Source: an uncultured Desulfospira sp. (lineage in GTDB: Bacteria > Desulfobacterota > Desulfobacteria > Desulfobacterales > Desulfobacteraceae). Taken from it: DNA of 64,000 nt. The DNA lies in contig OY760175.1 in NCBI GenBank assembly GCA_963663165.1, positions 5,408,001 through 5,472,000 on the forward strand, in the 5' to 3' direction. Each line of letters starts with the position of its first letter. The first letter of the stretch is position 1. Below are positions 5,631 to 62,460 of this stretch, one piece after another. Under the pieces are notes generated by a model. The model was not told the origin of the DNA and made no database searches. It saw only the letters and a list, made by a program, of their open reading frames with translations. The position numbers were made by a program, and so were the translations under genes.

Positions 5631-5660
5631 TACAGAATTCGGCGGATTGGTTTTAAAAAA
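5631..5660 (-). promoter_or_regulatory. Putative ECF-sigma promoter upstream of cas6 (1 mismatch in -10)
   Basis: ttttttaaaaccaatccgccgaattctgta on the - strand, 48 nt before the ATG. Confidence 0.5.
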
Positions 5661-5894
5661 AGTTTCAATCCGGATTGTGCAAAACAGAACTGCTTGAGGT
5701 CAATAAAAAAAGCAGAAGCAAATTTATTTTGATAGACCACTTTTCGCTTGGCATGTCAACAATTTATGGGAACAAATAAGCTTGGTTTCCTAACCCGGAT
5801 ATTTCACGAAGTTTCTTTGCCTCATATGCAAGGCACAGGCCGGAAAGCCAATAAAACAGACGGTCCCGATCGTTAACTGGTTTTGGGCGGCGAT

Positions 5895-6731
5895 TTATTT
5901 CATGCCGGTAAGTGTAATGCCCTCGACAAATTTGCGTTGAGCAATCAGGAATATTAAGACCAGGGGGGCTGTTATGATTGCCATTGCGGCCATTAGGGCG
6001 CCATAGTCGTTCCCAGCCTCCTCGTTGATGAACAGGATCGCACCAAGGGGCGGGGTGGCCAGCTTTTCTGAATGAATTACAATCAAAGGCCAGAATAAAT
6101 CATTCCAGTGGGAGACCAGCGAGAAAATTCCAAATGCAGCAACCGCTGGATACGCTGCCGGCAGCATGATGCGCCAGATGATGCTGAACTCGCTTAGACC
6201 GTCAATGCGCGCTGCATATATAAGATCATCGGAAACCGTCCGAAAGAACTGCCGCATAAGAAAAATACCGAAGACCGAAATGGTAAAAGGCGCAATCAGT
6301 GCCGCATAAGTATCCAGAATTCCGGCTTTGTAGCAAAGAATATATCTCGGGATGGCAAGAACCTGGGGCGGTACAAGCAGCCCGATCAGTACCATGGCAA
6401 ACAATGCTTTTTTACCCGGAAAATTTAATTTTGCCAGGGCATAAGCACAGGGAAGGGCAAACAGAACCTGGAAAAAAAAGATACCCGCACACACAATGAC
6501 CCCGTTTGCAATATAGCGAAGCAATGGAGATTCAGTCAGGGCCATTGAATAATTGCGCCAGACAGCCCAGCTGTTTGGCAGAATATGAAATTGAGGACTG
6601 AATAGTTCCTCGGGCGGCCTGAAAGAAATAAGGACGGCCCAGATAAAGGGCGCAAGTGCGATGAATGCACCGGCTATGAGCAGGCAATGCCTGACAGCAG
6701 ACCATACAAATTGTCTTTTTAAATGTTTCAT
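5895..6731 (-). CDS. Carbohydrate/glycerol-phosphate ABC transporter permease (UgpE/MalG-like)
   Basis: Hydrophobic TM segments, AARIDG EAA loop, WNDLFWPLIV. Confidence 0.9.
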   Translation of the reverse strand: MKHLKRQFVWSAVRHCLLIAGAFIALAPFIWAVLISFRPPEELFSPQFHILPNSWAVWRNYSMALTESPLLRYIANGVIVCAGIFFFQVLFALPCAYALAKLNFPGKKALFAMVLIGLLVPPQVLAIPRYILCYKAGILDTYAALIAPFTISVFGIFLMRQFFRTVSDDLIYAARIDGLSEFSIIWRIMLPAAYPAVAAFGIFSLVSHWNDLFWPLIVIHSEKLATPPLGAILFINEEAGNDYGALMAAMAIITAPLVLIFLIAQRKFVEGITLTGMK

Positions 6732-7678
6732 GAATAGTGTATCCGTTTATCCATGAACCATACCTGCAAAAGTGTGAGCGTCAGGATAATTGCCAAATAA
6801 ACAATTGCCAGTGAAGCGGCATGTCCGGTGCGGAAAAAGACAAAGGCCTCATTATAAATTGTGTAGAGCATTACCTCAGACGCCTTGTTCGGTCCCCCCC
6901 TTGTCAGAACGGCAACCGTATCAAAGACCTGAAAGGCCCGGATAGCCGTAATCACCAGAACAAACATGAAAGTGGGGCCAAGAAGGGGCCAGGTGACCAT
7001 GTGAAACTTATCCCAGGCATTGTCTGCACCGTCCACCTGGGCGGCCTCATACAGGTCGCCGGGAATGGATGCAAGCCCGGCAAGAAAAAGAACCATATTA
7101 AAGCCAAATGCCTGCCAGATACCAATGACACACAAAGTGCCCAGAACAGTGGTTTCATTTTGCAGCCAGCTTTTGGAGAGATCCGGCCCCAGGAGCCTGA
7201 TGGCATGATTTAAAAGGCCGATCTGGGGGTGGAGAACCATCTGCCAGGCCACTGCCATGGCTGCCATTGTGGCCATGACCGGCAGAAAATAGGCGGCTTT
7301 ATAAAATGATTTAAGACAGGTGCACGACTCAATCATGATGGCGGCAACAAGACCCATAACCACTGATATGGGAACAACAACGGCCACATAAATGGTCGTG
7401 TTTACCAAAGATTTCAAAAAGACCGGGTCATTGAACAAAACCTGAAAATTATCCAGGCCGACAAAGGAAAACGTGCCGGCACCAAATTCCCAGTCGGTAA
7501 CGCATATGATGATTACCGCCGCTACCGGGCCGATAATCATAAGAAAGATCAGCAACACGGCAGGGGCTGACAGGATATAGGCCGTCAGGGCCTCCATGTT
7601 GCCGTTCAGTCCTCGGGGATTTTTCGGAACAACGCTGTCAGCGGTCATGGTATGTGATATTGGGGGTTTCTCAACCAT
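6728..7678 (-). CDS. ABC transporter permease (UgpA/MalF-like)
   Basis: FVGLDNF, LYEAAQVDGA, TRGGP motifs. Start placed at the ATG overlapping the upstream stop. Confidence 0.9.
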   Translation of the reverse strand: MVEKPPISHTMTADSVVPKNPRGLNGNMEALTAYILSAPAVLLIFLMIIGPVAAVIIICVTDWEFGAGTFSFVGLDNFQVLFNDPVFLKSLVNTTIYVAVVVPISVVMGLVAAIMIESCTCLKSFYKAAYFLPVMATMAAMAVAWQMVLHPQIGLLNHAIRLLGPDLSKSWLQNETTVLGTLCVIGIWQAFGFNMVLFLAGLASIPGDLYEAAQVDGADNAWDKFHMVTWPLLGPTFMFVLVITAIRAFQVFDTVAVLTRGGPNKASEVMLYTIYNEAFVFFRTGHAASLAIVYLAIILTLTLLQVWFMDKRIHYS

Positions 7679-8840
7679 AGGCCGGTTCGCATTTTCTGGA
7701 TAAAGGCCGGGCATTAATCCGTTTTCCCTGTTCATTGAATACAAGCAGGCGGCGTAACGGCAGCTTGAGCCACACCTTTGATCCGGTCGGCACATCGCTG
7801 CCGGCCAGAGGATCAAGCCGGACGGTTACCTTTTGTTCGCAGTTGTTGATCCTGACATAGGCGAGCACCTCGGATCCCAGGTTTTCTCGAAAAATTACGG
7901 TTCCGGGAATACCTTGCTTTTGGCTATTGGTAAAAAGATTTACCGCCTCGGGGCGGGCGGCGACAATCACTTTGGTACCCGGAGAAAGCCCTGTCTCCAC
8001 CGGGATGAAATGATTAAAAACGTCTAGTCCGCCCATGGCGGATACGAGGGCCGGAAGCGTGTTGATTCCAGGGCTGCCTATGAATTCAGCCACACGCAGG
8101 TCAACCGGCTCGCTGTAGATTTCATCAGGGGATGCCGCCTGAAGAATACGGCCGTTCATCATCACGGCGATCCTGTCGGACATGGTCATGGCCTCGGCCT
8201 GATCGTGGGTGACATAAATAAAAGTCACCCCCAGGCGCTGGTGAAGCTGCACAATCTCCGTTCGCATCTGCACTCTCAATTTGGCATCAAGGTTGGACAA
8301 CGGCTCATCCATTAAAAAGACAACCGGCTGTCGAACCATGGCACGCCCCAATGCGACACGCTGGGCCTGTCCGCCGGACAGTTGCCTGGGTTTCCGGGTT
8401 AAAAGGTGCTCGATGCCCAGCATCCGGGCGGTTTCCATAACATCTTTTTCAATACGGCTTAAAATCCGGCCTGTGCCCGGGAAAAAGCGGCCTATCAGCG
8501 GAAGGCGCTGGTATCTTTTTAAACGGCGCATCTGCAGTGGTACCGCAATATTGTTAAAAACCGTCATGTGAGGATATAGGGCATAGGATTGAAAGACCAT
8601 GGCTGTATTGCGCTCTTTGGGTTTTTTGCCGTCAATACATTCATTCTCAAGATAGATATTGCCACTGGTTTGTTCTTCAAGGCCGGCGATGATGCGCAAA
8701 AGTGTTGTTTTGCCGCAGCCGGAGGGCCCTACAAGACTAATAAATTCTCCTTTACCGATGTCAAGTTCAATATTTTTCAGTATCTGGGAGCTGCCAAAGT
8801 TTTTGCAGATATTCCTGATTAAAACGCCGGGCATATCCAA
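7671..8840 (-). CDS. ABC transporter ATP-binding subunit (UgpC/MalK-like)
   Basis: GPSGCGKT, LSGGQ, LMDEPLSNLD, YVTHDQ and a TOBE-like tail. Confidence 0.95.
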   Translation of the reverse strand: MDMPGVLIRNICKNFGSSQILKNIELDIGKGEFISLVGPSGCGKTTLLRIIAGLEEQTSGNIYLENECIDGKKPKERNTAMVFQSYALYPHMTVFNNIAVPLQMRRLKRYQRLPLIGRFFPGTGRILSRIEKDVMETARMLGIEHLLTRKPRQLSGGQAQRVALGRAMVRQPVVFLMDEPLSNLDAKLRVQMRTEIVQLHQRLGVTFIYVTHDQAEAMTMSDRIAVMMNGRILQAASPDEIYSEPVDLRVAEFIGSPGINTLPALVSAMGGLDVFNHFIPVETGLSPGTKVIVAARPEAVNLFTNSQKQGIPGTVIFRENLGSEVLAYVRINNCEQKVTVRLDPLAGSDVPTGSKVWLKLPLRRLLVFNEQGKRINARPLSRKCEPAYG

Positions 8841-11288: not shown

Positions 11289-13429
11289 TGACCAATCCTC
11301 TCTAATCGAGGCGGTGTTTCTGACAAAGGAGATTACCATGTCATCATTAATTTTCAATTCAGTCTCAATCCTCTCTAATCGAGGCGGTGTTTCTGACTGA
11401 ACGCACTCGCAGCCGCCCCCACCGTAGCAACAAGTCTCAATCCTCTCTAATCGAGGCGGTGTTTCTGACGGCCTTGGTAAATTATACGCAGACCGACAAG
11501 GGAGCCGTCTCAATCCTCTCTAATCGAGGCGGTGTTTCTGACTACATGGCCTTTGATCAGGATGGGATGGAAGATTATTGTCTCAATCCTCTCTAATCGA
11601 GGCGGTGTTTCTGACTGATGCTTCATTTCAAACCGACAAAGGCACGTTTGAGTCTCAATCCTCTCTAATCGAGGCGGTGTTTCTGACGACATAAACCATT
11701 TAGCTTCTGCGCAAGAATTGATTTTGTCTCAATCCTCTCTAATCGAGGCGGTGTTTCTGACGGAAGTATACAAAATATAGAAGAGCTTTGGAAATCGTTG
11801 TCTCAATCCTCTCTAATCGAGGCGGTGTTTCTGACCAAAAAAGTAGTTGAAAAATTTCCCCACATGACTAAGTCTCAATCCTCTCTAATCGAGGCGGTGT
11901 TTCTGACAAAAAATGGATGGAAAGAAGGAATTGCGTATGTGGGTCTCAATCCTCTCTAATCGAGGCGGTGTTTCTGACATGGACGAAACAGGAGGGTACG
12001 CGTTTGAAGGTGATTTGTCTCAATCCTCTCTAATCGAGGCGGTGTTTCTGACTGAGAAAAGTAGAATTTAAAAAAATGTACCAGAAGCGTCTCAATCCTC
12101 TCTAATCGAGGCGGTGTTTCTGACGTACCAGAAGCTGATGGAGCACATCGGCAAGAAGGTGGTCTCAATCCTCTCTAATCGAGGCGGTGTTTCTGACAAA
12201 AATTTAAGTAAGATTAACAAGCCCGGCCATTAATTTGGTCTCAATCCTCTCTAATCGAGGCGGTGTTTCTGACACAACTACAATTTCACCCATGATGAAC
12301 CTGAATCAGTCTCAATCCTCTCTAATCGAGGCGGTGTTTCTGACCGGCATCCGTCCTGGCGGCACTGGGGATTCTGCCCACGTCTCAATCCTCTCTAATC
12401 GAGGCGGTGTTTCTGACATCAGAAAACAAATCAACCGCAACTTATCTATCCAAGTCTCAATCCTCTCTAATCGAGGCGGTGTTTCTGACCGGGAACAGCT
12501 GTTAACTATCGAATTGGACGAATATGTCTCAATCCTCTCTAATCGAGGCGGTGTTTCTGACTGAAACTTTTTATCACAACCACCATCAGCCCTATGATGT
12601 CTCAATCCTCTCTAATCGAGGCGGTGTTTCTGACCTTGGCGTTCTGCAAGACCTGGAGCCCGAGGAAATTAGTCTCAATCCTCTCTAATCGAGGCGGTGT
12701 TTCTGACAAATTCAATTTTCAAGTACGTCCTTGGGGCCGTCAGTCTCAATCCTCTCTAATCGAGGCGGTGTTTCTGACTGAATTAAGATTTTTTTAAATA
12801 CATAACCATTTTGAGTCTCAATCCTCTCTAATCGAGGCGGTGTTTCTGACTTGAAATGTCAAAATTGTACATTACCACGACCATCAGTCTCAATCCTCTC
12901 TAATCGAGGCGGTGTTTCTGACACAGTTAAGAAAGAAATCTGTCCAGGAGTTAATGAAGTCTCAATCCTCTCTAATCGAGGCGGTGTTTCTGACTGTCCA
13001 GGAGTTAATGAAAATTGGCGAAAGTGGAATGTCTCAATCCTCTCTAATCGAGGCGGTGTTTCTGACCTTGACGGAGAGCTTTACAACCACGATATGAATT
13101 TGTCTCAATCCTCTCTAATCGAGGCGGTGTTTCTGACCTGGTGCGGAGAAGTTTGGAGATATTATCTTTATGAGTCTCAATCCTCTCTAATCGAGGCGGT
13201 GTTTCTGACTCGAATATTTAAAATAATCTCCTGTCAATTTCTCTCGTCTCAATCCTCTCTAATCGAGGCGGTGTTTCTGACTCTTTGTCTTTGGCTGGTG
13301 ACAAGGAATTAAGAGATAAAAGTCTCAATCCTCTCTAATCGAGGCGGTGTTTCTGACGTTCGATCTTGAAAGCGTCATAGCGGCAAATGCCGAGTCTCAA
13401 TCCTCTCTAATCGAGGCGGTGTTTCTGAC
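11289..13429 (-). CRISPR. CRISPR array 1: 30 repeats / 29 spacers
   Basis: Repeat on + is GTCTCAATCCTCTCTAATCGAGGCGGTGTTTCTGAC. Degenerate trailer copy at 11289 and leader on the right, so transcription is on - with an ATTGAGAC 3' end. Confidence 0.98.
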
Positions 13430-13660
13430 TCTGGGTATCTGGAACCTTTGTCCGGCAAGGGTTTCCAAGGCGGTTTTGCCGGACCACCCCTGTTTTTGGG
13501 CTTTGGAAAAAAAGTTCCCACTTAAATTTATGCCGTTTTTAATACAACGCATTGATTTCAAAAGCAATATAAAAATGCCGGACCTCCTTGGGGCTGCCAG
13601 GGTCTGGGGTTGCCCTGTGTTGCCCGGAAAAATAACAGGTTGTCAAAGACCATATGGGCT
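13430..13660 (-). promoter_or_regulatory. CRISPR leader 1 with an IHF-consensus site (13545-13557)
   Basis: Begins tctgggtatctggaac like leaders 2 and 4. AATCAATGCGTTG on - matches WATCAANNNNTTR. Confidence 0.8.
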
Positions 13661-14674
13661 CTAAAACGTCACCGGCTGATACCGGGCTTCTGTGCCTAAA
13701 AGATAGCCGGCAAAACAGCGGACCTGGGTCTGGATGGTGCCGCGAAAGGAGGCAGAACCCCGCATCAGCTCTTCATATGAGACAATAAAGGTCTTATAAA
13801 GGTGGGGCTTCATTTCAACGGGCCTGAGGGCGGCCATCTCCTTTTCATCTGCATAGGTTTTCATCGGGGTGTCCCGGTAATGGAAATCATCCGGCCGGAC
13901 CATTTTCCGATTCAGCAGGTTCAGCACAAACCGGTCGCCGATCAGGCACCGGTACTCCTCCACCAGATCACAGGCCAGGGAAGGCCGGCCATATGCAATT
14001 TCATGCAGGGTCCCCATATAGGGATCAAGCCCACAGCTTTTTATTGCGGATATCACCTCATTTGTCAACAGGGTATAAACAAAGGAAAGCAGGGCATTGA
14101 CCGGATCTTTGGGCGGCCGCCGGTTCCGGTTGGGAAAATGAAAATCCTTGTTCCGAATCAGCAGGTTAAATACGCTAAAGTAAATCCGGGAGCCCGCCCC
14201 TTCAAATCCCCGGACCGCTTCGGGGGTATCGGCCCGGTTCAGGCCGGCGGACAGCGACTTTAAACCGGCAGCCGCCGCCCCAATGCGCGGCTCTTTATAG
14301 TCCCGCCCCCGCCGGGCCAGGAACCAGGCCATGTTGGCCAGTTTTCCAGAGACAATGGCCTTCATCACCAAAAGCTTGAAGGCCGGTTCTTCAAGCCTTG
14401 TGTACTGGGCTTTGCGCAAGGCCACATGCTTGTGTTCATCAATCATAAGCCGGGCCCTGAACCGCCCGGCGGCCGTTAGGAATACGGTTTCCACCCGGTT
14501 TTGGATCAAAAAATCCATAACCGGTCCGCTCAGGGAGATGTTGCCGGTTAAAACCAGTTTATCCAGGCCCTTTGCCGGCAGGCTGTCCACCAGGTGCCCC
14601 TGCTTGACAATATCAAGGCTGGCGCCGTTCTTTTTAAGATACGCCCCCGGCTCAACCACGTACAGGGTTTCCAT
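13661..14674 (-). CDS. cas1: CRISPR-associated endonuclease Cas1
   Basis: RGFEGAGSRIYF, RNRRPPKDPVNALLSFVYTLL, GTLHE, SLACDLVEEYR. Confidence 0.97.
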   Translation of the reverse strand: METLYVVEPGAYLKKNGASLDIVKQGHLVDSLPAKGLDKLVLTGNISLSGPVMDFLIQNRVETVFLTAAGRFRARLMIDEHKHVALRKAQYTRLEEPAFKLLVMKAIVSGKLANMAWFLARRGRDYKEPRIGAAAAGLKSLSAGLNRADTPEAVRGFEGAGSRIYFSVFNLLIRNKDFHFPNRNRRPPKDPVNALLSFVYTLLTNEVISAIKSCGLDPYMGTLHEIAYGRPSLACDLVEEYRCLIGDRFVLNLLNRKMVRPDDFHYRDTPMKTYADEKEMAALRPVEMKPHLYKTFIVSYEELMRGSASFRGTIQTQVRCFAGYLLGTEARYQPVTF

Positions 14675-14690: not shown

Positions 14691-16352
14691 CTATTTTAAA
14701 AATTTTTCCAGCTGGACTATGGCGGTTTTCATGTTTTCAACCGCATGGGCCAGGCTCTCTATTTTTTCACTTTTCACCATGGGGTCCGGGCCCACCCCGG
14801 CCCATGATTCAAGATGGACCAGGGGGTGCAGATACCCTGAGGCATCAGGCTCAATCCGGCAAAAGTCCCGGTCATAACCGGTCAGGGAGTGGATCCTGCG
14901 GCAGCCTAAAGGGGTGCCCCGGACCCGGCTGAGCTTATAATCCACCAGATGGGGATTGTAGTCCCGGGTGGTGGATAAAAGATAATGGAGCATGGCCTTG
15001 CCGCCGGGCAGAAATCCCAGGGTCTGGTATAAAATTTTCTCTTCACGCACCCCGATGCTGTGATGCTCCCGCAGCATGGCGGTCAAACGGCCAATGGCCG
15101 GGCACTTATGTTCCAGTTCAAACAGGTCGGGAAATTTTTTTTTCAAGGCCGTCATTTCAGGGTGCCAAATCAGTTTGGCGGCCTGGGCAGTCTGCATGTG
15201 GTCTGAAAGCCGGTCCGGATTAGACCGGGCAACCGTATTAATGAACTTAAGCTGGGCATCCACATCCTTTTGGGGGCAGTCCGGGAAAAAAGAGCGCCCG
15301 CCACTTTGCCGGTGAATGCCCAGGGGCAGCTTGACCAGGTTGCCCAGCCCTTTGCCGGACAAATGGTCCTGCTTGGGAAATACCTCCAGCTTAAAGCATG
15401 ACAGGTCCGGGGCCAGGCTGTCGCAGATCTCGGTCAGGGCCTGGCGGATCCGGCCGGCCGGAACCGGTGACGCCATGAAAAACCAGAAATGGTATCCTTT
15501 TCCCCCGCTGAACTCAATCACCGGGGACAGCCCCAGTTTTCCGGCAGCTTCGCTGATTCGCGCCGCCATGTAAGCCCGGTCTTTGCGGATCCGGCCCCTG
15601 GCCCGGGCAAGGTCCGGACCTCCGGCGCTGCGCAGTTCGGGAACCAGGTCGGCATCAATCACCGCACACTTGACCGTGGCATCTGTGTTCATCAGATAAA
15701 ACCCGTAGGTTTTGGTGCCTTTAAAATGGTCTTCCATATCCCCGCAGGTCACCGGCCGACGGACCGGGACATACCCGCAGGTGCCTTTTTGCCGGTCTGC
15801 CCACTGCCGGGCAAACACATCGGTCCGGGAGAAAAACAGATCCATAAACCCTGAGACCATTTGCTGCCGGGTATGCATTCGCTCAAAGGGCGCTGTACAG
15901 GCATCCAGGCCCGGGCCGGAGTTACTTTTTTCCGGACCGTTATAAACGCTGTGTACCCAGGACAGGGCCTTTTCTTTGCCCACATGGCCCTGGGCCCGGA
16001 GGAGAAGGGACGCCAGGGCCTTCTTTTGCCCCAAAATATCCAGGAGTTCGATCCAGGCCTGCCAGGCGCTTTCAAAGGCCGGATCTTTTGTGGTTAAATA
16101 TTTATAGATTTCCAGGGCCGGGTCCACGCATCCCGCGATCTGGGCAATCCTGGCCCACTGCATGGCCTGGTCAGGGGTCAGCCTTTGCCAAACCTCTGCC
16201 CTGCCAAGCACCTTTCGGCATTTGTCCGGGGCCTTATCTTCCAGAACTGCCTGTTCCAGCTGCCGCAACAAAAGCGTATAATCGGTGCGGCCCTGCCCGG
16301 GTGACCGGTTCCGGTCAGGGGCCGTTTGGGGGGCATGTAGCGATTGTTCCAT
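14691..16352 (-). CDS. CRISPR-associated primase-polymerase (CAPP): N-terminal TPR-like region, AEP core, Cys-containing C-terminal domain
   Basis: AEP motifs VIDAD, SGGKGYHFWF and GNLVKLPLG; adjacent to cas1. Confidence 0.88.
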   Translation of the reverse strand: MEQSLHAPQTAPDRNRSPGQGRTDYTLLLRQLEQAVLEDKAPDKCRKVLGRAEVWQRLTPDQAMQWARIAQIAGCVDPALEIYKYLTTKDPAFESAWQAWIELLDILGQKKALASLLLRAQGHVGKEKALSWVHSVYNGPEKSNSGPGLDACTAPFERMHTRQQMVSGFMDLFFSRTDVFARQWADRQKGTCGYVPVRRPVTCGDMEDHFKGTKTYGFYLMNTDATVKCAVIDADLVPELRSAGGPDLARARGRIRKDRAYMAARISEAAGKLGLSPVIEFSGGKGYHFWFFMASPVPAGRIRQALTEICDSLAPDLSCFKLEVFPKQDHLSGKGLGNLVKLPLGIHRQSGGRSFFPDCPQKDVDAQLKFINTVARSNPDRLSDHMQTAQAAKLIWHPEMTALKKKFPDLFELEHKCPAIGRLTAMLREHHSIGVREEKILYQTLGFLPGGKAMLHYLLSTTRDYNPHLVDYKLSRVRGTPLGCRRIHSLTGYDRDFCRIEPDASGYLHPLVHLESWAGVGPDPMVKSEKIESLAHAVENMKTAIVQLEKFLK

Positions 16353-16388: not shown

Positions 16389-17759
16389 TCAATGTCTGAC
16401 CATGGCCCGGAGCCGGTCTATTTTGGGATAATGGTACGCTGCGCAGGATTCCAGCTCGGTCAGCAGCTGATCCGCCTTTCGTGTATCCCCGGCTTTAAAT
16501 GTGCAAAGGCTTTGCCAGAAAAGGCCTTCCAGGAAAGGGTTGCCGAATGTGGTGCTGAAAAAATCACAGGCCCGGGCCGCATGGGCCGCAGCCGCATCAA
16601 AATGGTCCAGCCGGTATTCAATTTTGGTCAGGCGGATCAGGCCCACATGCCGGGAACGCGAATCCTTTTCCACCACCCGGGTTAATATCTGCCTGGCCTG
16701 ATCAAACCGGCCTGCGGTACACAGTACGTCGGCTTCAGTCCAGCGGTAGTAGGGCCGGCGAATTTTTTCAGGCACATGGCCAATGGTTTCAAGGGCTTTA
16801 TCCACCTGCCCCAGGGCCAGATAGGTCCGGGCCAAAAGTTCGTGGATAAAATCCGTGGGCCGCCCTTTGCCGCTGCTTTGAAGGGCAAACATCAGTGCGT
16901 TCCGGGCCTCATCAAACCGGTCCAGGGCAAAATGGACCTTGCCCAGGGCGAAATACTTGAATCCCAGGTTGATATGGTTGGTCTGCTCATCTATCTTCAG
17001 GCAGCCGGTGATCCGGTCCATGGCCTTTTTGCCGTTTCCCAGGGCCAAAGAGAGGCTGGCGCTGCGGTACAGGGATTTAATGTAATTCTTTTTTTCCTGG
17101 TGGCGTTCCTCCCGCTCCCGGTCGGTTAAGCCTTCCCAGTTTGAGCAGGCTTTGTCAAAACAGGAAAGCCCCGGTTTGGGCTTGTTTTCAATCTGGGAGA
17201 AAAGCATGCCCTCCCGGTAAAAGTTGGTCACCGTGTCCGGCCGCAGCTTCTGGGCCTTTTGAAAATATTCGTGGGCCAGGGAGATCCGTTCAGCCCGGGC
17301 TTTCCCGGCCAGAAACACCTGTTTGTTTTTGGCGGCCCACAGACTATTGTACGCGGTATATGCCAGGGATGCGCAGGCCATGAAGTGATCCGGTTCCGCC
17401 GCCACGCAGGTCTTAAGTTCCTTGAGGGCCTCGTCAAACCGGCCCGCCTGGCCCAGGGCAAAGGCCACCTTCAGCCGCACCGGGCCGTCCATCTTCCCGG
17501 ATACCAGATCCGGCACTTTTTCGTCTACCGGATGGTACAGGCTTAGCAGATCATCCCACCGGCAGCCCCTGGACAACTCGTCAATGTCGGAAAGGACCTG
17601 GTTTCTGTTTTTTTTCATGTACCGGCCCGCGGCCACCCCGAAAAGCTCCCGGTCCGAGAACAGCTCTTTTTGCCCGGGTTCCGGTACCACTGTTTCCGGA
17701 CCCGGTGTTGCCGTCCGGACAGATCCGATAATTCTTGCTGCTGCCTGAAGTTCTACCAT
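16389..17759 (-). CDS. Tetratricopeptide-repeat protein
   Basis: Repeated helical units (ALGQAGRFDEAL, ALGKVHFALDRFDEA, LARTYLALGQVDKAL). Confidence 0.85.
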   Translation of the reverse strand: MVELQAAARIIGSVRTATPGPETVVPEPGQKELFSDRELFGVAAGRYMKKNRNQVLSDIDELSRGCRWDDLLSLYHPVDEKVPDLVSGKMDGPVRLKVAFALGQAGRFDEALKELKTCVAAEPDHFMACASLAYTAYNSLWAAKNKQVFLAGKARAERISLAHEYFQKAQKLRPDTVTNFYREGMLFSQIENKPKPGLSCFDKACSNWEGLTDREREERHQEKKNYIKSLYRSASLSLALGNGKKAMDRITGCLKIDEQTNHINLGFKYFALGKVHFALDRFDEARNALMFALQSSGKGRPTDFIHELLARTYLALGQVDKALETIGHVPEKIRRPYYRWTEADVLCTAGRFDQARQILTRVVEKDSRSRHVGLIRLTKIEYRLDHFDAAAAHAARACDFFSTTFGNPFLEGLFWQSLCTFKAGDTRKADQLLTELESCAAYHYPKIDRLRAMVRH

Positions 17760-17819: not shown

Positions 17820-17849
17820 TACGGAGGCAGATTCATAAATTTTAAATTT
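17820..17849 (-). promoter_or_regulatory. Putative ECF-sigma promoter of the TPR-CAPP-cas1 operon
   Basis: aaatttaaaatttatgaatctgcctccgta on -, 61 nt before the ATG. Confidence 0.6.
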
Positions 17850-19673: not shown

Positions 19674-19711
19674 GGTGACTAATATAATTAATTTTAAGAC
19701 ATTCAATGGCT

Positions 19712-25755: not shown

Positions 25756-25785
25756 TACGGAGCCGGAAAGGAAAGTGTTAAAATC
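25756..25785 (-). promoter_or_regulatory. Putative autoregulatory ECF promoter of the sigma operon
   Basis: gattttaacactttcctttccggctccgta on - (AAC-N17-CGTA), 66 nt before the ATG. Confidence 0.65.
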
Positions 25786-51175: not shown

Positions 51176-51205
51176 TACGGAATTCAATAGGCGTCCTTTA
51201 AAATT
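51176..51205 (-). promoter_or_regulatory. Putative ECF-sigma promoter of the cas10 operon
   Basis: aattttaaaggacgcctattgaattccgta on -, 25 nt before the ATG. Confidence 0.6.
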
Positions 51206-54657: not shown

Positions 54658-57162
54658 TCAGGCGTATGCCTGCCAGACGGCACGGCGATGCCGAATTTCC
54701 CTGTCAATGGCTGCAACATCCATCCCGTATTTCAGCGATGACGCTCTTTTTATTCCGGCAGCAATGCTTTCGTCATACCGGGTGTCATCCAGTACTGTCT
54801 CTAGGCTGAAAGGCGCAAGGGCGTTATTTTTTGTCTGCATCCGGACGTAAGCATGCCAATTGGGCAAAGAGATGATATCCTGCTTATCAAATACCGGTGA
54901 AAGTGAAACAGCCATCTCTTTTGCATCCTCCTGCCCAAGACGGAATATGGCAATCTGGCCTACATTTCCAAGAACGGCTGAAAGCAAATTATTCCGGGTG
55001 TTTTTGCCTCTGTTTTTCAACTGACCGGCATACTGGGTGGACAGAACAAGTCCCAACCGGTACTTCCGGGCCTCGGACAAAAGTTCCATAAAATTTTCAG
55101 CCGGAAGGTTGTGGGCTTCATCCACATAAAGAAAAAAGTCCCGGCGCTCTGACGGCGGCATTACAGCTCTTTTCATGGCAGCCAGTTTAAACCGGCTGAC
55201 AATCATGTTGACCAGGAACGCGGAGACCATGCTGCCAAACCGGCCCTTGCCCAGCTTCATTAAAAAAATTTTCCCCTGGTCCAGAATCTGTTCAAAACTA
55301 AAAGTGGTGTGTGACTGGCCGACAATTCTTTTCAGGACGGTATCCTGGAATCGTGAAAATTTGGAAATGACATAAGGCGCGATATTGGCAAGGGTAGCCT
55401 CGCCCCCGGCCCGTTCCGCCTGCGCCAGGAAATCATGGAGCTGATAATCATCCACTGTGGACTTAAGATAATCCCTGAATTCTTCATCCAGGAAAAAGGT
55501 GGGGAAATCCAGTATGGTGGGCGTAAAACCAGCCCTTTTTTTGTCACCCATCAATAATCCCATCGCCCCCCTGAAGTACTGCTCAAAAATAGGCCCCCCG
55601 GTCTGGGAGAGATCGTAACTATGGTGAATACACTGGTATATTTCATCAACGATAAGATCACGTTCCTGGAGCGTGTTCCATTCCAAAACATTAAAACCCA
55701 TGGGCCTTGACGGTTCAAGAGGATCAAAAAAGATCACGTCATCCGCCCGGTCTTCGGGAATCCGGGCCATGATATTATCAATCATATCCCCGTGAGGATC
55801 TATGACAGCCACACCTTTGCCGTTTTGAATATCCTGAACAATCATATTGCTCATCTGCGTGGATTTGCCGGTGCCTGTCTGCCCAATGATAAAGCTGTGC
55901 CGGAACCGGTCCTCATTGTTGATTCGAACAGGCTTTTGCCTCCCCTGGTACGTGTTCATACCAATGAGGACATCATCTGCGGCCAGGGGGTTTTCTTCGA
56001 TCATGGATAAAGCACTCCGGAATTTTTTTACCGGGAATCCGGGCGGGATCTCTTCAAAAGGAGGATTGGGCAGCCGGAAAGCACAGGAGGCCTCAAGGGC
56101 GGAGAACGGTTCAATGCTTTTTGGGATGTATTGCATTTCAACAGCGTTCTCAACACGGATCTGTGAAATCCGTGTGCCTGATTTCCATAAAGGATTCTGC
56201 TCGGAACGGCCTGACGGCCCGGTGATGGAATCGGCCAGAAGCTTGCCTAAAAACCCGTCCGGCTGACCGGCAGTCAACAGAAATACGCCAAGATCAAAGC
56301 TGCCCTCTGAAAGCTGATTCATCCGGTCAAGGATTTGCCTGCGAATGTCATCTGCCTGCTCTCTTAACGTCACATTATTATTAAACTTCATGTCCAGAAA
56401 CCGGTCGCACTTTTTTATCTTTTCTTCCATATTCCCGATATTTTTTGCAGTGAGCGCATGCTGCCTGATTCTGATGATAATTCTGACCGGATCAATATGA
56501 CTGAGCATCACATTCATCAGGGTGGACCAGTCGTCATCTGATGGGTACCAGGAAAAAACATGGCGAACCATATAGTTTTCTGAACCGCCAAAATTGTCGG
56601 CGGCCGGGGCGGTATACCCGATTCTGCCCGGGGAGAACGGGGCTTGCAGACAGACCTTTTCCGTCTTCCGATGGATCATCAGGGCAGAGTGAAACGGCGT
56701 TGTATTTGTTATCAGCATCACTTTCCTGTGATCGGAAACCACCCGGAAATCCGCTTCAGGGAAACATGAGGACAGAAGCGGCTTAACACTTAAGAAAGTT
56801 GCAATGATTTTTTCTTTAACTGTCTGTTCACTGGCATTCTTACAATGGATGGCCAATGCAATTTCCAGCCTGTTTCCTGCCGGATCACTCAGGCTGGGAA
56901 AAGAGGTCATTATCAGCTCCAGGGAAACTGATTTATCAAGGAACGACAAGGACCGGGTGAATGCAAGCCGTTTTTTCTGCAGATTGGCAGGACTGATCCT
57001 GTTAAGGGCTGCAATGCGGCTGTCCCTGACCTGTGAATCAATCATCAAAAGTTCTCCCTGGAGAATAGAATCCAGACGCAGCAGGGCCGTACCCTCAAAC
57101 GCATCCTTTGCTTTTCGGATCACAATTGCCGGGAAAAATGTCAATGGTTTCTCCTTATACAT
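54658..57162 (-). CDS. HerA/FtsK-superfamily ATPase (VirD4/TraG/VirB4-like)
   Basis: RHSFIIGQTGTGKST, VIDPHGD, LYVDEAHN, SEARKYRLGLVLSTQ. Confidence 0.88.
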   Translation of the reverse strand: MYKEKPLTFFPAIVIRKAKDAFEGTALLRLDSILQGELLMIDSQVRDSRIAALNRISPANLQKKRLAFTRSLSFLDKSVSLELIMTSFPSLSDPAGNRLEIALAIHCKNASEQTVKEKIIATFLSVKPLLSSCFPEADFRVVSDHRKVMLITNTTPFHSALMIHRKTEKVCLQAPFSPGRIGYTAPAADNFGGSENYMVRHVFSWYPSDDDWSTLMNVMLSHIDPVRIIIRIRQHALTAKNIGNMEEKIKKCDRFLDMKFNNNVTLREQADDIRRQILDRMNQLSEGSFDLGVFLLTAGQPDGFLGKLLADSITGPSGRSEQNPLWKSGTRISQIRVENAVEMQYIPKSIEPFSALEASCAFRLPNPPFEEIPPGFPVKKFRSALSMIEENPLAADDVLIGMNTYQGRQKPVRINNEDRFRHSFIIGQTGTGKSTQMSNMIVQDIQNGKGVAVIDPHGDMIDNIMARIPEDRADDVIFFDPLEPSRPMGFNVLEWNTLQERDLIVDEIYQCIHHSYDLSQTGGPIFEQYFRGAMGLLMGDKKRAGFTPTILDFPTFFLDEEFRDYLKSTVDDYQLHDFLAQAERAGGEATLANIAPYVISKFSRFQDTVLKRIVGQSHTTFSFEQILDQGKIFLMKLGKGRFGSMVSAFLVNMIVSRFKLAAMKRAVMPPSERRDFFLYVDEAHNLPAENFMELLSEARKYRLGLVLSTQYAGQLKNRGKNTRNNLLSAVLGNVGQIAIFRLGQEDAKEMAVSLSPVFDKQDIISLPNWHAYVRMQTKNNALAPFSLETVLDDTRYDESIAAGIKRASSLKYGMDVAAIDREIRHRRAVWQAYA

Positions 57163-57672: not shown

Positions 57673-58194
57673 TCACCTGACCGGTTTACCGGATTTAATG
57701 ATCTTCGGGTGTTTCCCGTACACGTCGGCCGGGATAAAAACGCAAGACTGCCCCGGAGATTTAACAGACTGGTACTTTATGGCCTTTCCTTTTTTTGCGG
57801 CTGCTGCTCCCATCTTTCCCCCGAGTTTTGGGCCGATGACATTTTTTTTTACAGTGCCCCTCAAATCTTTGTACTTTACCTGTTTTTTGATGCTGGCAGG
57901 GGTGGGCTTTCTCATATTGATTGTATTGTTCTTCAGGTAATTGCTTTCCTTGAATCTGATTACGGCATCAGCGGCTTTTGATTCCACTTTTGCGGTTTTC
58001 CCTTTAGGGGCCAGATACACCCCTTTGCCGAATCTGGCGGCGCTTTTCATTTTTGCTCGGCTGAAGCCTTTCTGCAGAATTTTCCTGGCTGCCGCTTTCC
58101 GGGTGGCGTGAAATAAAAACGCATGGCAGGGCGCATGGTACAGCCCGGCATCCAGCAGCATAATACAGGCCAAACACAGCATTGATCGTTTCAT
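57673..58194 (-). CDS. Signal-peptide-bearing basic protein with ADP-ribosyltransferase (PARP-like) motifs
   Basis: Hydrophobic N-terminus, then LFHAT..AARKILQKGF...RFGKGVYLA; GGAGG RBS. Confidence 0.6.
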   Translation of the reverse strand: MKRSMLCLACIMLLDAGLYHAPCHAFLFHATRKAAARKILQKGFSRAKMKSAARFGKGVYLAPKGKTAKVESKAADAVIRFKESNYLKNNTINMRKPTPASIKKQVKYKDLRGTVKKNVIGPKLGGKMGAAAAKKGKAIKYQSVKSPGQSCVFIPADVYGKHPKIIKSGKPVR

Positions 58195-58273
58195 TGGATT
58201 CCTCCTTCCATTCAAGGTTTTGATTCAAGGTTTTGATGCCCCCTTATTTTAATTCTTCACCTGTAACAGAATA

Positions 58274-58303
58274 TACGGAGATGATTTTTTAAATTTCAAA
58301 AAA
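58274..58303 (-). promoter_or_regulatory. Putative ECF-sigma promoter
   Basis: ttttttgaaatttaaaaaatcatctccgta on -. Confidence 0.55.
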
Positions 58304-58313
58304 ATCTTGTGAG

Positions 58314-58757
58314 TCATGGCTGCAAGTCTTCCCAGAGTTCCCTGGCCTCATCAATCCACCCCTCACATTGTTCCTGGGTGAACTCATCCATGGGAATCCG
58401 CGTGACCCAGTAATTAAATTTCCGCAGCCGTTTCACCATGGCAGGCCCCCGGGTCTGGTTGACGGAATGAACCAGTATGGGCACATCATTGGGAATGTGA
58501 CGGATCAGGGTGTCCACCACCGTCATCCCGGTTAAAAGCTGATCGGCATCATTCACCGTATGTTCCTGGAGATCATGATCCAGCATTATCCCGGCATATA
58601 CATGGCCTTTGTCCCTCCGGATTAAACCGATTGCCTTGCCTGCACTGGTAACGACCACAGGCCTTGCATCCGCAGGCAGCCAGGCTTTAAGCAAATTGGC
58701 CCGCTCAATATTATCCTCCACGATAAGAATGCGAAAAAACCGCTTTGGTCCGGCCAT
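58314..58757 (-). CDS. Cyclic-phosphate-processing receiver-like (cREC) protein
   Basis: ILIVEDN, LDHDL, TG, ILVHSVN motifs; AGGAG RBS before MAGPK. Confidence 0.72.
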   Translation of the reverse strand: MAGPKRFFRILIVEDNIERANLLKAWLPADARPVVVTSAGKAIGLIRRDKGHVYAGIMLDHDLQEHTVNDADQLLTGMTVVDTLIRHIPNDVPILVHSVNQTRGPAMVKRLRKFNYWVTRIPMDEFTQEQCEGWIDEARELWEDLQP

Positions 58758-58895
58758 ACCTTTTCTCCTGTATTTTAAAATCCGAGGAATTGAGGGGGGG
58801 GTGATAACATACGCCAGGCACATCAACTGATGCCTGGCATATGTTCTTTATTCCTGGCAGCGTCCTGGAGCAGATGCCGTCATTATGATAAGAGA

Positions 58896-58925
58896 TACGG
58901 AGATGTTTTTTGAAAATTAAAAAAT
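58896..58925 (-). promoter_or_regulatory. Putative ECF-sigma promoter
   Basis: attttttaattttcaaaaaacatctccgta on -. Confidence 0.55.
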
Positions 58926-58929
58926 CAGA

Positions 58930-59271
58930 TTAACGCCTTCTTCCAAATCCGAGTATACGTCCCAGGATTTTAAACGGCAGAACAATCAGCTCAAAAATTA
59001 TCATGCTGGCCACCCGTTCAAATATCTTTTCGCCCATTACAATCTTTAAGGTTGCGATGACCATCCACACGCATAGCAGCAGGAATGCCCAGAACGGCAG
59101 CATTTCTATAATCTGGCCGATGAAAGGCGCAAGGACGGCGAGCAGACAGACCGTCACTGCGATGGCCCATGCCTTTGACATGCTTATCAGGCCAAGCATC
59201 AGGGCAAAACCAGCACCGACCAAAACCAGAATATATGCCTCTTCCGGTATGACCATCCAAAGTGTCTGCAT
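58930..59271 (-). CDS. Small integral membrane protein
   Basis: 113 aa, three to four hydrophobic helices, basic tail; AAGGAG RBS. Confidence 0.8.
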   Translation of the reverse strand: MQTLWMVIPEEAYILVLVGAGFALMLGLISMSKAWAIAVTVCLLAVLAPFIGQIIEMLPFWAFLLLCVWMVIATLKIVMGEKIFERVASMIIFELIVLPFKILGRILGFGRRR

Positions 59272-59299
59272 ATTGTCTCCTTATATTGGGCGTTCCTGT

Positions 59300-59473
59300 T
59301 TACCGATTCTTTTTTGCATTATCCCGGCCAGACTTGTAAGTATCTCTATCGGCTTTGTTTTTCGGAGGTCTGTAATGGGGGCTTGACCCTCCGGATCGGA
59401 TAATATCCACGAAACTGTCGTTCCTGCTTTTCTTTTGATCCTGCTGCCCTTTCTTGTGATAATCTCTTCCCAT
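59300..59473 (-). CDS. 57-aa hydrophilic protein (below the ORF-track cutoff)
   Basis: MGRDYHKKGQQDQKKSRNDSFVDIIRSGGSSPHYRPPKNKADRDTYKSGRDNAKKNR; GAAGGG RBS; stops just before the next gene's RBS. Confidence 0.6.
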   Translation of the reverse strand: MGRDYHKKGQQDQKKSRNDSFVDIIRSGGSSPHYRPPKNKADRDTYKSGRDNAKKNR

Positions 59474-59540: not shown

Positions 59541-59570
59541 TACGGAAGTGTTTTTCAGATTTTAAAAAAA
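59541..59570 (-). promoter_or_regulatory. Putative ECF-sigma promoter
   Basis: tttttttaaaatctgaaaaacacttccgta on -. Confidence 0.55.
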
Positions 59571-59782: not shown

Positions 59783-62086
59783 TCACCACCGGCTAAGATA
59801 AGGCTTGTAACTCTTTTTGCCATACAGATATTCCCGAAGCGTCACCGCCTGCTGAAACAGCACCTCCTGCAGGGTCTTTCGCCCGCCTTTGTGGCTGACT
59901 TCCGTCCCCAGCCGGGCCATGGTGGCTCCCGCCATTTTTTTGCAGCACTCTTTTGTTAAGAGGCCGTCCCTGCGCTGTTCAATTTTTCCACCCCTGTTCA
60001 GCATGCTGATAACTGTCCGGTCAATCACTGGTGCCCGGAATTCCTCCACCAGATCGTAAGTAAGGACAGGTTTGCCCGGCTGGTAGGAATGAAGAAAGCC
60101 GGCGGCAGGGCTGAGTCCGGCTTTGATAACAGCATTTAACGCTTGGGAATAAAGGATGCCATATCCGTAATTGAGCAGCGAGTTGACCGGATCACCAGCC
60201 CCTCTTCGTTTCCGGCCCGGGAAATTAACCTCACCGGGAAGGATATGGGAAATGAGACGCCAGTATCTAGTGGCAAACGTGCCTTCCAGCCCCATAATTC
60301 CATTTCTGAAGTTCCGGGGAGCCCGGCCTTCCGTCTTTAGCGAGCTAATTTTATGGATGAGACGTTCAAGCTGCGCCCTTTCGTGTTCAAAAGCCGCCTT
60401 GTACCCGTTGTCCCTTTTTTTATATTTTCCGTATGATTTCAACAGGGCGAGCTGATTTTTTGTCTTGCCCCAGATGAACATCCTGGCCAGTTGCAACCCT
60501 TCTGAATGATCCTTGAGTGCCACCTGTTTCTGGATCGTTTCCGCCCGGAGACCGGCAGGATGCTGCAAAACGGCAGTAATGGTGCCAAGGCCGTTAATTA
60601 TATGAAACGGAATATCCTTTTCAGCACAATGATGCAGGATATTTGTTGACACAGAAAGGGCGTGTTCTGCAACAGTGATGCCTTTCAGTTCCGAGACCGG
60701 CACTTCAGATACAATCTTTTGCTTTTGCCGGACAACAACCCGATTGGACTGAAGACCGATATAATGACCCGGGCTGAGGACAAAAATCTCGCCCCCGGCC
60801 ACCTGCTTGCGCTGAAACTGCCTCCTTTTGACATTGGCTTTTTTATCTGCCTGTTTAATTGGCTGCTCTGATGTTAAAGCCTTTCGGCCCTCTTTCCAGA
60901 TGGCCACCAGCTGTGCCTTTTTTTCTTTTCCCGAAAGACTGTATTCCGAGGCAGGCAGCGGCAGCCGCAGATGGGGCGGCGGGGTCCTGGGCCATTTCCC
61001 CTGCTTCAGCCGGTGCTGCACAAGCCGTTCAAACAGGGAGATCAGTTTTTTCTCAATGAATAGAAACTGCTCGCCGGAACCCAGGAACCCATAATGAAAC
61101 TGCCAGCCTTTGACCGATTGTTCAAGGCGGGCAAACACCTCTTCCAGGCCAAGGCGGCTATTGGGAGAAAGAAGATAACCAAGTTTTCCCAGCATTTTGT
61201 TCTGCTTTTTTTCGCTGATGCGCCGGTCTTCACCTTTAAAATAAATTCCGAGAAAGTCAAAGCCCCCGGCAAGACTCGCAACCGGTGATTTATTTTCGTT
61301 CAGCTGCAGTGACAGTTTTTGGGAAAGGAACGCCTTGACCGCGAGATCCGCCTCTATGGCCTGTTTCTCGTGCGCGCACTGTAAGACATAATCATCAGCG
61401 TAACGGACCCATCCCCATTGTTTTTCCCTGACAAAGAGATCCAGTTCATGAAGATAAAGATTGGCAAGCAGCGGTGAAATAACCTGCCCCTGCCGAACCC
61501 CCTCTTTAACATCTTTCCATTTTCCGCCCCTGGCGACAATGCCGGAACGGCACCACAGCGCCACCAGATCCACAACTGTTTTCTCCCCGCCCACCAGGTT
61601 GCTGAACAATGATATAAGCAGGTCATGATTCAACCGGTCAAAAAAGTTATCAACATCCTGACGAACCACCCACTGCAGCTTTCCGGCATTGAGATTATGC
61701 TCCACCCGGCGGATGGCACGGTAATGACCTTTGCCTTTTCTATAGGCATAACTGGTGTCCAGGAACAGTTTTTCCGCCAGGGGTTCAACAACCTGGAGCA
61801 ATGCTGTCTGCACAACTTTATCAGCAACAGTGGGCAGTCCGAGATGGCGCCACTCTTTTTTTTCATTAAATTTCGGGGTGCGGACCTCCTGAACCGGCTC
61901 CGGGGTGTATCTGCCGGCTGAAATATCCTGTCTCAGCCGGCGAAGATTTTTATGAAGGTCTTTTTCAAATGAATCAACACTGACTTTATCCACGCCGCCC
62001 AGGGAGCCTTTTTTCCTCACCCGGCGAAAGGCGCCAAGCAGGTTGGATTCATCCAGAAAGGCATCAGTAATGGTACCTGTTCTCAT
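59783..62086 (-). CDS. cas1: Reverse transcriptase-Cas1 fusion
   Basis: RT motifs LGLPTVADKVVQ, SYAYR, QGQVISPLLANLYL, RYADD, FDFLG; Cas1 motifs GLEG, DPVNSLLNYGY, GFLH, DLVEEFR. Confidence 0.96.
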   Translation of the reverse strand: MRTGTITDAFLDESNLLGAFRRVRKKGSLGGVDKVSVDSFEKDLHKNLRRLRQDISAGRYTPEPVQEVRTPKFNEKKEWRHLGLPTVADKVVQTALLQVVEPLAEKLFLDTSYAYRKGKGHYRAIRRVEHNLNAGKLQWVVRQDVDNFFDRLNHDLLISLFSNLVGGEKTVVDLVALWCRSGIVARGGKWKDVKEGVRQGQVISPLLANLYLHELDLFVREKQWGWVRYADDYVLQCAHEKQAIEADLAVKAFLSQKLSLQLNENKSPVASLAGGFDFLGIYFKGEDRRISEKKQNKMLGKLGYLLSPNSRLGLEEVFARLEQSVKGWQFHYGFLGSGEQFLFIEKKLISLFERLVQHRLKQGKWPRTPPPHLRLPLPASEYSLSGKEKKAQLVAIWKEGRKALTSEQPIKQADKKANVKRRQFQRKQVAGGEIFVLSPGHYIGLQSNRVVVRQKQKIVSEVPVSELKGITVAEHALSVSTNILHHCAEKDIPFHIINGLGTITAVLQHPAGLRAETIQKQVALKDHSEGLQLARMFIWGKTKNQLALLKSYGKYKKRDNGYKAAFEHERAQLERLIHKISSLKTEGRAPRNFRNGIMGLEGTFATRYWRLISHILPGEVNFPGRKRRGAGDPVNSLLNYGYGILYSQALNAVIKAGLSPAAGFLHSYQPGKPVLTYDLVEEFRAPVIDRTVISMLNRGGKIEQRRDGLLTKECCKKMAGATMARLGTEVSHKGGRKTLQEVLFQQAVTLREYLYGKKSYKPYLSRW

Positions 62087-62103
62087 ATGTCCTGATCCTC
62101 TTT

Positions 62104-62379
62104 TTAAATGATCGTGTCATATTTTTCCTTTTTGATGCCGCTCTGCTCTCTTTGATCCGCACATTTCCCGCAAAGGAAATAGTAGAGGACGGAATCCTGC
62201 CCGGAGTTGATAATGGCTTCAATCTTTTTTTTCAGGGGGAAAATTCCGGATTTTCGGATGCGGCATTCAAAAACAGAATAATTCACCCGGATGCCATATC
62301 CCTTAAGCAGCTTGACAAGTGCATTCCGCCTTTTATTGCTGGCAACATCATAGGCAATCACCACATACTGTTTTGACAT
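62104..62379 (-). CDS. cas2: Cas2
   Basis: VIAYDVASNKRR..LKGYGIRVNYSVFEC..DSVLYY. Confidence 0.95.
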   Translation of the reverse strand: MSKQYVVIAYDVASNKRRNALVKLLKGYGIRVNYSVFECRIRKSGIFPLKKKIEAIINSGQDSVLYYFLCGKCADQREQSGIKKEKYDTII

Positions 62380-62430
62380 GTTGAATCACTCCGGCCTTTT
62401 TCTCGTGTTAAACCCGTTTCTCTTATTTTT

Positions 62431-62460
62431 TACGGAGCCGGCCGACTGTTTTTAAAATAA
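62431..62460 (-). promoter_or_regulatory. Putative ECF-sigma promoter of cas2-RT-cas1
   Basis: ttattttaaaaacagtcggccggctccgta on -; shares ccggctccgta with the sigma-gene promoter. Confidence 0.62.

Follow-up and report, generated by a model that had tools for sequence, protein, structure and literature searches.

Which factor reads the promoter-like element that recurs ahead of the CRISPR genes of an uncultured Desulfospira sp.? The question is raised by a 64,000-nucleotide stretch (hereafter the window) comprising bases 5408001-5472000 of a single-contig genome of 6.74 Mb and 50% G+C (GCA_963663165.1, contig OY760175.1), in which nearly all genes of a type III CRISPR island lie on the minus strand. 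The predicted promoter has two parts separated by about 15 nt: at the -35-like position (T)TTTAAA, which is TTTGAAA in relatives, and at the -10-like position TCCGTA, whose core is CCGTA. We find the motif to be real and island-specific, placed as a promoter would be and conserved across genera alongside the gene for a 349-amino-acid (aa) protein resembling sigma-70-family factors. Since it precedes nearly every CRISPR operon and travels with the sigma-like gene, the defence genes probably share one dedicated switch, and the sequence comparisons below make it likely that the motif is the dedicated promoter class of this locus-encoded protein, which would bind both RNA polymerase and the motif.

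The original prediction listed eight such sites on the minus strand of the window, 25-140 nt before start codons, with a spacing constant within 1 nt and mostly unrelated spacers. The sites and the genes behind them are:

62431..62457, minus strand: TTTTAAAAACAGTCGGCCGGC-TCCGTA, 51 nt upstream of cas2
59541..59567, minus strand: site 67 nt upstream of a 57-aa open reading frame (ORF; 59300-59473)
58896..58922, minus strand: site ~69 nt upstream of the gene for a 170-aa cREC_REC-domain protein (58314-58826)
58274..58300, minus strand: site whose -35 block varies to TTTGAA; the gene for a 180-aa protein starts 58 nt downstream
51176..51203, minus strand: site 24 nt upstream of the Cas10 ATG at 51151
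25756..25783, minus strand: site 65 nt upstream of the sigma-like gene
17820..17847, minus strand: site 60 nt upstream of the TPR-PrimPol-cas1 operon
5631..5658, minus strand: site reading TCTGTA; a truncated cas6 starts 47 nt downstream

The -10-like hexamer is present at all eight positions, reading TCCGTA at seven and TCTGTA at 5631, and the distance to the likely start codon of the first gene of the operon is 24-69 nt throughout. The upstream element is TTTAA at seven sites and TTGAA at 58274, and it begins 20 nt (62431, 59541, 58896 and 58274) or 21 nt (51176, 25756, 17820 and 5631) before the first T of the hexamer, so that the predicted constancy within 1 nt is confirmed; the spacer length of about 16 nt given with it depends on where the -35 block is delimited. 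Spacers and flanks differ from site to site, with the exception of a duplicated pair formed by 5631 and a ninth site at genome position 5483361, 11 kb past the window end, which stands ahead of a full-length cas6 (L001:11366) and a second Cas10/RAMP operon. The 5631 site is a near-copy of this ninth site, and the two count as one lineage because the cas6 behind 5631 is a truncated paralogue. Every site lies on the coding strand of its downstream gene; two conserved blocks at a fixed spacing, pointing at genes shortly downstream, are what a sigma-dependent promoter would look like. The site before the sigma-like gene, also correctly foreseen, sits where autoregulation of that gene would be expected to place it.

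The sites far exceed chance expectation. The pattern TTTAAA-N14-18-TCCGTA has 4 matches in the window where 0.04 would be expected, a count attained by none of 100 shuffles, and TCCGTA alone has 28 against 13.3. Searching the whole genome with TTT[TA]AA-N15-17-TCCGTA yields 17 matches at 13 distinct sites, of which six lie in the window, one at 5483361 and six elsewhere, the last all within ORFs of 379-829 aa on the opposite strand; none was found in intergenic DNA outside the island. An equal frequency of the motif in AT-rich intergenic DNA across the genome, which the original prediction had named as the outcome that would speak against it, is thus contradicted, 7 of the 13 sites being at the island. 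In a leave-one-out analysis with a position weight matrix (PWM) of the nine sites over ~13.5 million genome positions, the left-out site was equalled or exceeded in score by 1, 0, 135, 1 and 260 non-training positions in the case of 62431, 59541, 58896, 58274 and 51176, and by 35, 124, 3 and 0 in the case of the other four.

Intergenic DNA elsewhere in the window scores no higher than 11.5, compared with 22-31 for the sites, which are themselves the training set. A general promoter type of the organism was considered for the motif and rejected, given the confinement of the pattern to the island genome-wide and these low scores elsewhere in the window. The CRISPR leaders were likewise rejected as carriers, the best score being at most 11.5 in all four, and the motif was not found upstream of a 14-gene operon at 27537-41767. 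Upstream of hipB, the consensus sigma-70 promoter TTGACA-N17-TATAAT is present and the island motif absent, just as anticipated for the hipA operon. The proposed control is not literally island-wide, because the CRISPR arrays and the 14-gene operon lack the motif.

Conservation in other genomes, proposed in the original prediction as a check, is the second line of evidence. Of 301 genomes sampled from the order, 31 (24 of 156 genera) have a gene related to the sigma-like gene. The 11 closest family sequences served to collect related loci; relatives of the sigma-like gene lie in nine loci from genomes and five from metagenomes. In the former nine (104 kb), the PWM trained only on the window gives 11 matches scoring at least 19.5, against 0.27 expected from shuffles. 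Counting genome and metagenome loci with a sigma-like gene at least 34% identical, 12 of 16 contain such a match; of the other four, L006 begins inside a TTCGTA-type site, L012 has the same variant with a longer spacer, L015 holds a partial gene at a contig end and L010 has no site. The matches in related loci are always in promoter positions. The motif precedes the sigma-like gene, or a small gene ahead of it, in L003, L004, L005, L016 and L017 (the 25756 site itself being kept in L003, L017 and L004), between the sigma-like gene and a gene encoding an H-x3-C-x2-C motif in L007, L008, L009, L011 and L014, upstream of TPR-PrimPol-cas1 in L003, L004 and L017, and upstream of cas6-cas10 operons of type III-A in L007 and type III-B in L008 and L009. 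L007, L008, L011 and L013 are close kin, so they are not independent. When orthologous upstream regions of four genomes are aligned, invariance is limited to the ribosome-binding site and the -35 and -10 blocks, and the flanks diverge, which bears out the expected conservation; the co-occurrence with homologues of the sigma-like gene likewise supports the proposed link between the two.

More distant loci, in which the sigma-like protein is 24-28% identical, were searched with the relaxed pattern TTKRAA-N13-16-[GAT]CCGT[TAC], whose background is 4.4 per 100 kb on both strands. In 8 of 14, a same-strand site is present 75-207 nt past the end of the sigma-like match; these sites read TTTGAAAA-N-(G/A)CCGTA, and the ORF behind the site encodes H-x3-C-x2-C in 8 of the 11 loci checked. 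Upstream regions of TPR-PrimPol were also compared (n=18; a nineteenth, of 8 bases, was dropped). In all seven from genomes with the sigma-like gene, (G/T)CCGT(A/T/C) and a TTTGAAA block occur at a distance of 1429-1582 nt before PrimPol. Among the 11 regions from genomes in which no sigma-like gene was found, three have a site (G064, G072 and G231), seven have none and G025 is ambiguous.

In the order-level sample, 12 of the 31 genomes that have the sigma-like gene also encode CRISPR-associated PrimPol, compared with 20 of the other 270. In several related loci the sigma-like gene is preceded by a gene for a conserved protein of ~155-162 aa with no Pfam match (L004:9479-9946, L007:4989-5477, L008:9493-9981 and L024:11026-11502), which is missing in the window and in L003.

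The candidate reader of the motif is encoded together with three neighbours (20075-25690, minus strand), with which it would be co-transcribed:

24641-25690, minus strand: sigma-70-family-like protein, 349 aa, assigned by structure model and family profile
23476-24627, minus strand: putative anti-sigma factor, 383 aa, with H-x3-C-x2-C
21389-23491, minus strand: Lon-TPR protease (Lon domain ~115-290, TPR-like solenoid ~300-700)
20075-21352, minus strand: CARF protein of the TM1812 family (TIGR02221, DxTHG motif)

The 349-aa protein matches no Pfam family and, in a phmmer search of the PDB, no chain at E up to 10. An exhaustive search finds relatives of similar length (135 representatives), and among 78 aligned family members 28 match Pfam Sigma70_r4_2 and 23 match Sigma70_r4. 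A profile of the family searched against the PDB retrieves region 4 of FliA-type and other sigma factors, the best match being FliA region 4 (E 6.4e-5), and the family carries the helix-turn-helix of sigma-70 region 4. The AlphaFold model (AF2; predicted local distance difference test (pLDDT) 87) consists of two parts and a disordered linker, with a sigma2-like N-terminus (residues 1-96), a middle domain, a sigma4 helix-turn-helix (residues ~237-316) and a C-terminal helix. The top Foldseek matches are sigma factors, although the best E value is weak (5.7e-3, probability 0.98). The top VIA-align match is SigL sigma4, aligned to residues 237-316 (Z 8.2, 79 residues, root-mean-square deviation (rmsd) 4.6); full-length SigL, one of the extracytoplasmic function (ECF) sigma factors, gives Z 7.9 with 160 of 174 residues aligned, and residues 1-96 match the sigma2 domains of SigR (Z 5.9, 76 aligned, rmsd 3.3) and SigC (Z 5.2). 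ECF factors have a compact sigma2-sigma4 architecture of ~200 aa; the island protein has 349 aa, with ~110 extra folded residues between the sigma2-like and sigma4 parts and the additional C-terminal helix. We read it as a divergent sigma-70-family member with an extra middle domain and not as a standard ECF factor. Our literature search found no published description of this family or its motif, and one may still be in print.

In the 383-aa protein, H35-x3-C39-x2-C42 and C17, near the N-terminus, are invariant in eight homologues. We take H-x3-C-x2-C to be the signature of zinc-binding anti-sigma factors (ZAS), and this neighbour may sequester the sigma-like protein. The Lon domain of the adjacent protease matches an archaeal Lon domain by profile (E 7.5e-10); its S194 and K237 are invariant and presumably lie where the catalytic dyad is placed. 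In the model (pLDDT 70.8), residues 300-700 are all-helical and are best matched by TPR/ARM solenoids in Foldseek, and a TPR-like profile matches at 602-627. Searching the PDB with phmmer returned classical Lon proteases alone at E up to 1, and an Atlas search returned unnamed clusters only, some with Lon_C. The CARF protein, to which Csa3_N also matches weakly, may act as a sensor of cyclic oligoadenylate, and signalling by cyclic nucleotides is plausible since both Cas10 proteins of the island have GGDD. In both, the HD motif is absent.

These assignments suggest a mechanism in which type III signalling would lead the Lon-TPR protease to remove the anti-sigma factor, whose loss would give an infection-induced boost of the entire CRISPR apparatus. 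Besides the sigma operon, the promoter class would drive cas6, the two adaptation modules (cas2/RT-cas1 and TPR-PrimPol-cas1), two type III effector operons, one of them beyond the window, and three small accessory operons; the CRISPR arrays would not be driven by it. The feed-forward immune response of the original prediction remains a hypothesis. The full protease-release chain is plausible, and we put it forward tentatively. Equally tentative is the proposal that the locus represents an undescribed module, in which a long non-ECF sigma factor, a zinc-motif anti-sigma factor and a Lon-TPR protease would place the protein side of type III immunity (both spacer-acquisition machines, cas6, the effector complexes and the small accessory effectors) under one infection-triggered promoter class, with the arrays transcribed separately. 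In such a module, the -10 specificity may have drifted with the sigma factor across lineages (TCCGTA, TTCGTA, GCCGTA, ACCGTA).

Several results weigh against the sigma factor reading and its extension to a release mechanism. The single NCBIfam match of the 349-aa protein, to the ECF model TIGR02937, is confined to region 4 and below threshold (16.3 bits versus a cut-off of 42.9, E 0.006); with the lack of a Pfam match, the length of the protein and a region 4 nearest to the FliA type, the ECF identity given in the original prediction is not upheld. None of the 78 family members matches a Pfam region-2 model, and the sigma2 assignment, made on the structure model, rests on middling Z scores of 5.2-5.9. 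The anti-sigma role of the 383-aa protein hinges on one short motif: neither Pfam nor NCBIfam gives a match above cut-off, zf-HC2 of Pfam reaching E 0.18 at best, and phmmer against the PDB gave two mite allergens and nothing else. In the Lon-TPR protease no SAVED or CARF domain is recognised by profile, model or Foldseek, with an alignment of only seven sequences, so that its tie to cyclic-oligoadenylate signalling is indirect.

On the DNA side, the low-scoring variants of the distant loci and TPR-PrimPol regions were chosen by the relaxed pattern and by eye, the latter from the two best rows per region. The exact pattern TTKAA-N15-16-TCCGTA, searched in five genomes, has counts not above those of a reversed-pattern control and a site near the sigma-like gene in G233 only; the complete genomes G146 and G049 have no exact TCCGTA site near theirs. 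Such misses in distant relatives arise because their -10 blocks are variants. Finally, G064, G072 and G231 have a GCCGTT or GCCGTA variant upstream of TPR-PrimPol, yet no sigma-like gene was found in them, and a relaxed search at E 0.01 gave ordinary sigma region-4 matches only. These are draft assemblies of 110-430 contigs, so the gene may be unassembled; alternatively, another factor may read the motif there.

Such a factor could be a host sigma factor, most plausibly sigma-28 (FliA), in which case the island would be wired into a host regulon. Sigma-28 promoters have a TAAA-type -35 and a CCG-containing -10 block ~15 nt apart (consensus TAAA-N15-GCCGATAA), and many ECF promoters have a CGT core in the -10 block. 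The island motif has features of both, its geometry TAAA-N14/15-(T/G)CCGTA resembling the former and its CGT core the latter. Both flagellins and a true FliA, which passes its cut-off with 236.7 bits, are encoded in the genome, and together with the related motif in the three genomes just described this speaks for a host factor. However, the -10 block is CCGTA in the island and CCGATAA in sigma-28 promoters; the latter occurs in 0 of the 9 island sites, while the single clear sigma-28-type promoter of the host, upstream of a flagellin gene, is TAAAGTTT-N11-CCCGATAA and keeps CCCGATAA. A host regulon is also hard to reconcile with the lack of intergenic matches outside the island and with the motif lying immediately before or after the sigma-like gene in loci from many genera, and we regard it as unlikely.

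The two blocks could also be the operator of another locus-encoded regulator, for example of the CARF/Csa3 type, acting on ordinary promoters, with the sigma-like protein serving some other role. The weak Csa3_N match of the CARF protein in the sigma operon speaks for this explanation, and Csa3-type regulators of cas genes are known, being mentioned in one report (PMC11229360). The element, however, lacks symmetry and points the same way with respect to its downstream gene at every site, the interval between its blocks and the distance from it to start codons are those usual for -35 and -10 blocks, and no alternative -35/-10 pair was noticed around the sites, where no formal test was made; an operator is accordingly improbable. 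Chance occurrence in AT-rich intergenic DNA, or a residue of local duplication, is the least credible explanation and hardly tenable. The -35 block is indeed AT-rich and of low complexity, and the 5631 and 5483361 sites are duplicates, but the shuffle, genome-wide and leave-one-out tests argue against chance, the spacers and flanks of the other sites are unrelated, and the motif is retained in other genera while flanks diverge. A promoter class read by the sigma-like protein of the locus remains the explanation we favour.

Protease-released sigma factors in CRISPR loci are already known (CASP-sigma, CalpS and DdvS) and their target genes are only partly known; the comparisons that follow draw on the portions of the cited reports that were available. 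In the type III-E system, CASP-sigma is inhibited by a partner, which is cleaved by a CRISPR-associated protease with a TPR domain, and has three motif matches in its own locus, cas1 included, with support from E. coli reporters (Strecker et al. 2022, PMC10028731). The island resembles CASP-sigma/Csx30/Csx29 in having a sigma factor candidate in a CRISPR locus and a motif recurring within that locus, including at cas1. CASP-sigma is, however, a clear ECF factor (HHpred 100% according to the paper), whereas the 349-aa protein is under ECF HMM cut-offs, and its protease is a CHAT caspase bound to Cas7-11, whereas that of the island is Lon-type (PMC10028731). In place of three sites there are eight and one beyond the window, adding cas6, two Cas10 operons and two adaptation modules. 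A membrane protein is also among the CASP-sigma targets (Strecker et al., PMC10028731), which may be compared with a 113-aa hydrophobic ORF (58930-59271) behind the 59541 site.

The CalpL-CalpT-CalpS system likewise combines, in type III loci with a Cas10 that makes cyclic nucleotides, a sigma factor and an anti-sigma factor with a protease of the Lon family (10.1101/2024.05.08.593097, PMC11229360, PMC12751052). No chain named CalpL, CalpT or CalpS was returned when the three island proteins were searched against the PDB with phmmer. CalpL has a SAVED sensor, whereas the island protease has a TPR-like solenoid and no recognised SAVED domain, and the putative anti-sigma factor differs from CalpT in its H-x3-C-x2-C motif. 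The CalpS targets are termed just 'specific genes' in the available text (10.1101/2024.05.08.593097, PMC11229360, PMC12751052), whereas a candidate regulon can be read from the DNA of the island.

In Myxococcus xanthus, DdvS/DdvA acts on four promoters in a CBASS/type III-B island (PMC6061681, PMC11506125). Both cases involve a sigma/anti-sigma pair, putative in the present one, beside a defence island with several promoters, including in M. xanthus that of a type III-B cas operon with cas6 (PMC6061681). DdvS is a canonical ECF factor with a transmembrane anti-sigma factor and requires CarD-CarG, and the array is transcribed by read-through (PMC6061681); the leaders of the island arrays lack the motif, the putative anti-sigma factor has, unlike DdvA, no evident membrane link, and a protease gene is part of the module. 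As far as these sources describe the three systems, the island module stands apart from all of them by its sigma-like protein and putative anti-sigma factor, by how its protease is built and by how broad the predicted regulon is.

The locus thereby offers a whole candidate regulon that is legible in sequence and conserved across genera, covering adaptation, processing, interference and accessory genes of no known role. If the proposed regulation is correct, type III immunity in these bacteria would largely amount to a transcriptional programme that can be induced, three of the promoters would have candidate new effectors in the small genes behind them, and natural promoter variants paired with sigma variants would be available for study.

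The features of the island, with gene identities in the window from Pfam and NCBIfam matches, are:

62652-63640, 41891-42665, 26048-27025 and 11289-13429, minus strand: four CRISPR arrays of one repeat family
62104-62379, then 59783-62086, minus strand: cas2, then RT-cas1
57673-59473, minus strand: three small operons
54658-57162, minus strand: TraG/VirD4-like ATPase
43340-51151, minus strand: type III-D-like effector operon (short Cas10, RAMPs, Csx19)
27537-41767: 14-gene operon between arrays 2 and 3
18077-19760: hipBA, between the CARF gene and TPR-PrimPol-cas1
16389-17759, 14691-16352 and 13661-14674, minus strand: TPR protein, CRISPR-associated PrimPol and cas1, one operon
5083-5583, minus strand: truncated cas6
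Genome 5473485-5483366 (L001:1485-11366), outside the window: second type III operon

The window gene list also includes an ABC transporter. The Cas10 gene starting at 51151 is the first of the type III-D-like operon, which runs to 43340. The order of the second type III operon is full-length cas6, a 409-aa gene, a short Cas10 (GGDD, no HD) and RAMPs. The truncated cas6 is an N-terminal fragment and a paralogue of this full-length gene (84% identity over 158 aa). Among the small operons, the 57-aa ORF behind the 59541 site is very basic and is followed by the 113-aa hydrophobic ORF, neither having a family match; the 180-aa protein (57673-58215) has a weak PARP-like match, and its gene is followed by two small ORFs and the TraG/VirD4-like ATPase. 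The 14-gene operon encodes a radical SAM protein, a double AAA+ ATPase, PP2C, VWA and Ser/Thr kinase proteins, a histidine kinase, a response regulator and a PIN-like protein, and may be a separate defence system. L003, the closest relative locus, has an identical gene order without hipBA, which therefore looks inserted in the window.

Since the degenerate repeat forms the low-coordinate end in each of the four arrays, the arrays are also read on the minus strand. The leaders of arrays 1, 2 and 4 (13430-13660, 27026-27300 and 63641-63915) are similar to one another and contain a TTGACA block; that of array 3 (42666-43339) is unlike them. In array 4, one repeat-to-repeat unit (63369-63495) measures 91 nt in place of the usual 70-73 nt, the extra DNA holding a direct duplication in which AAAAAATAATTTTTTGTCAC occurs twice.

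Mobile elements occur at several points. The region adjoining the truncated cas6 (2952-5066) holds, besides an ISKra4-like transposase gene (2952-4352) and fragments of AbiEii, a single isolated and degenerate CRISPR repeat (5031-5066), suggesting that a rearrangement or insertion cut the cas6 locus. A Mutator/MULE-type transposase gene (51585-53339) lies directly upstream of the promoter-like site of Cas10, and a related transposase is encoded at 73-1332 on the plus strand. At the island edge, a DruA-like protein (Druantia, E 3e-36) is encoded at 2022-2894, also on the plus strand.

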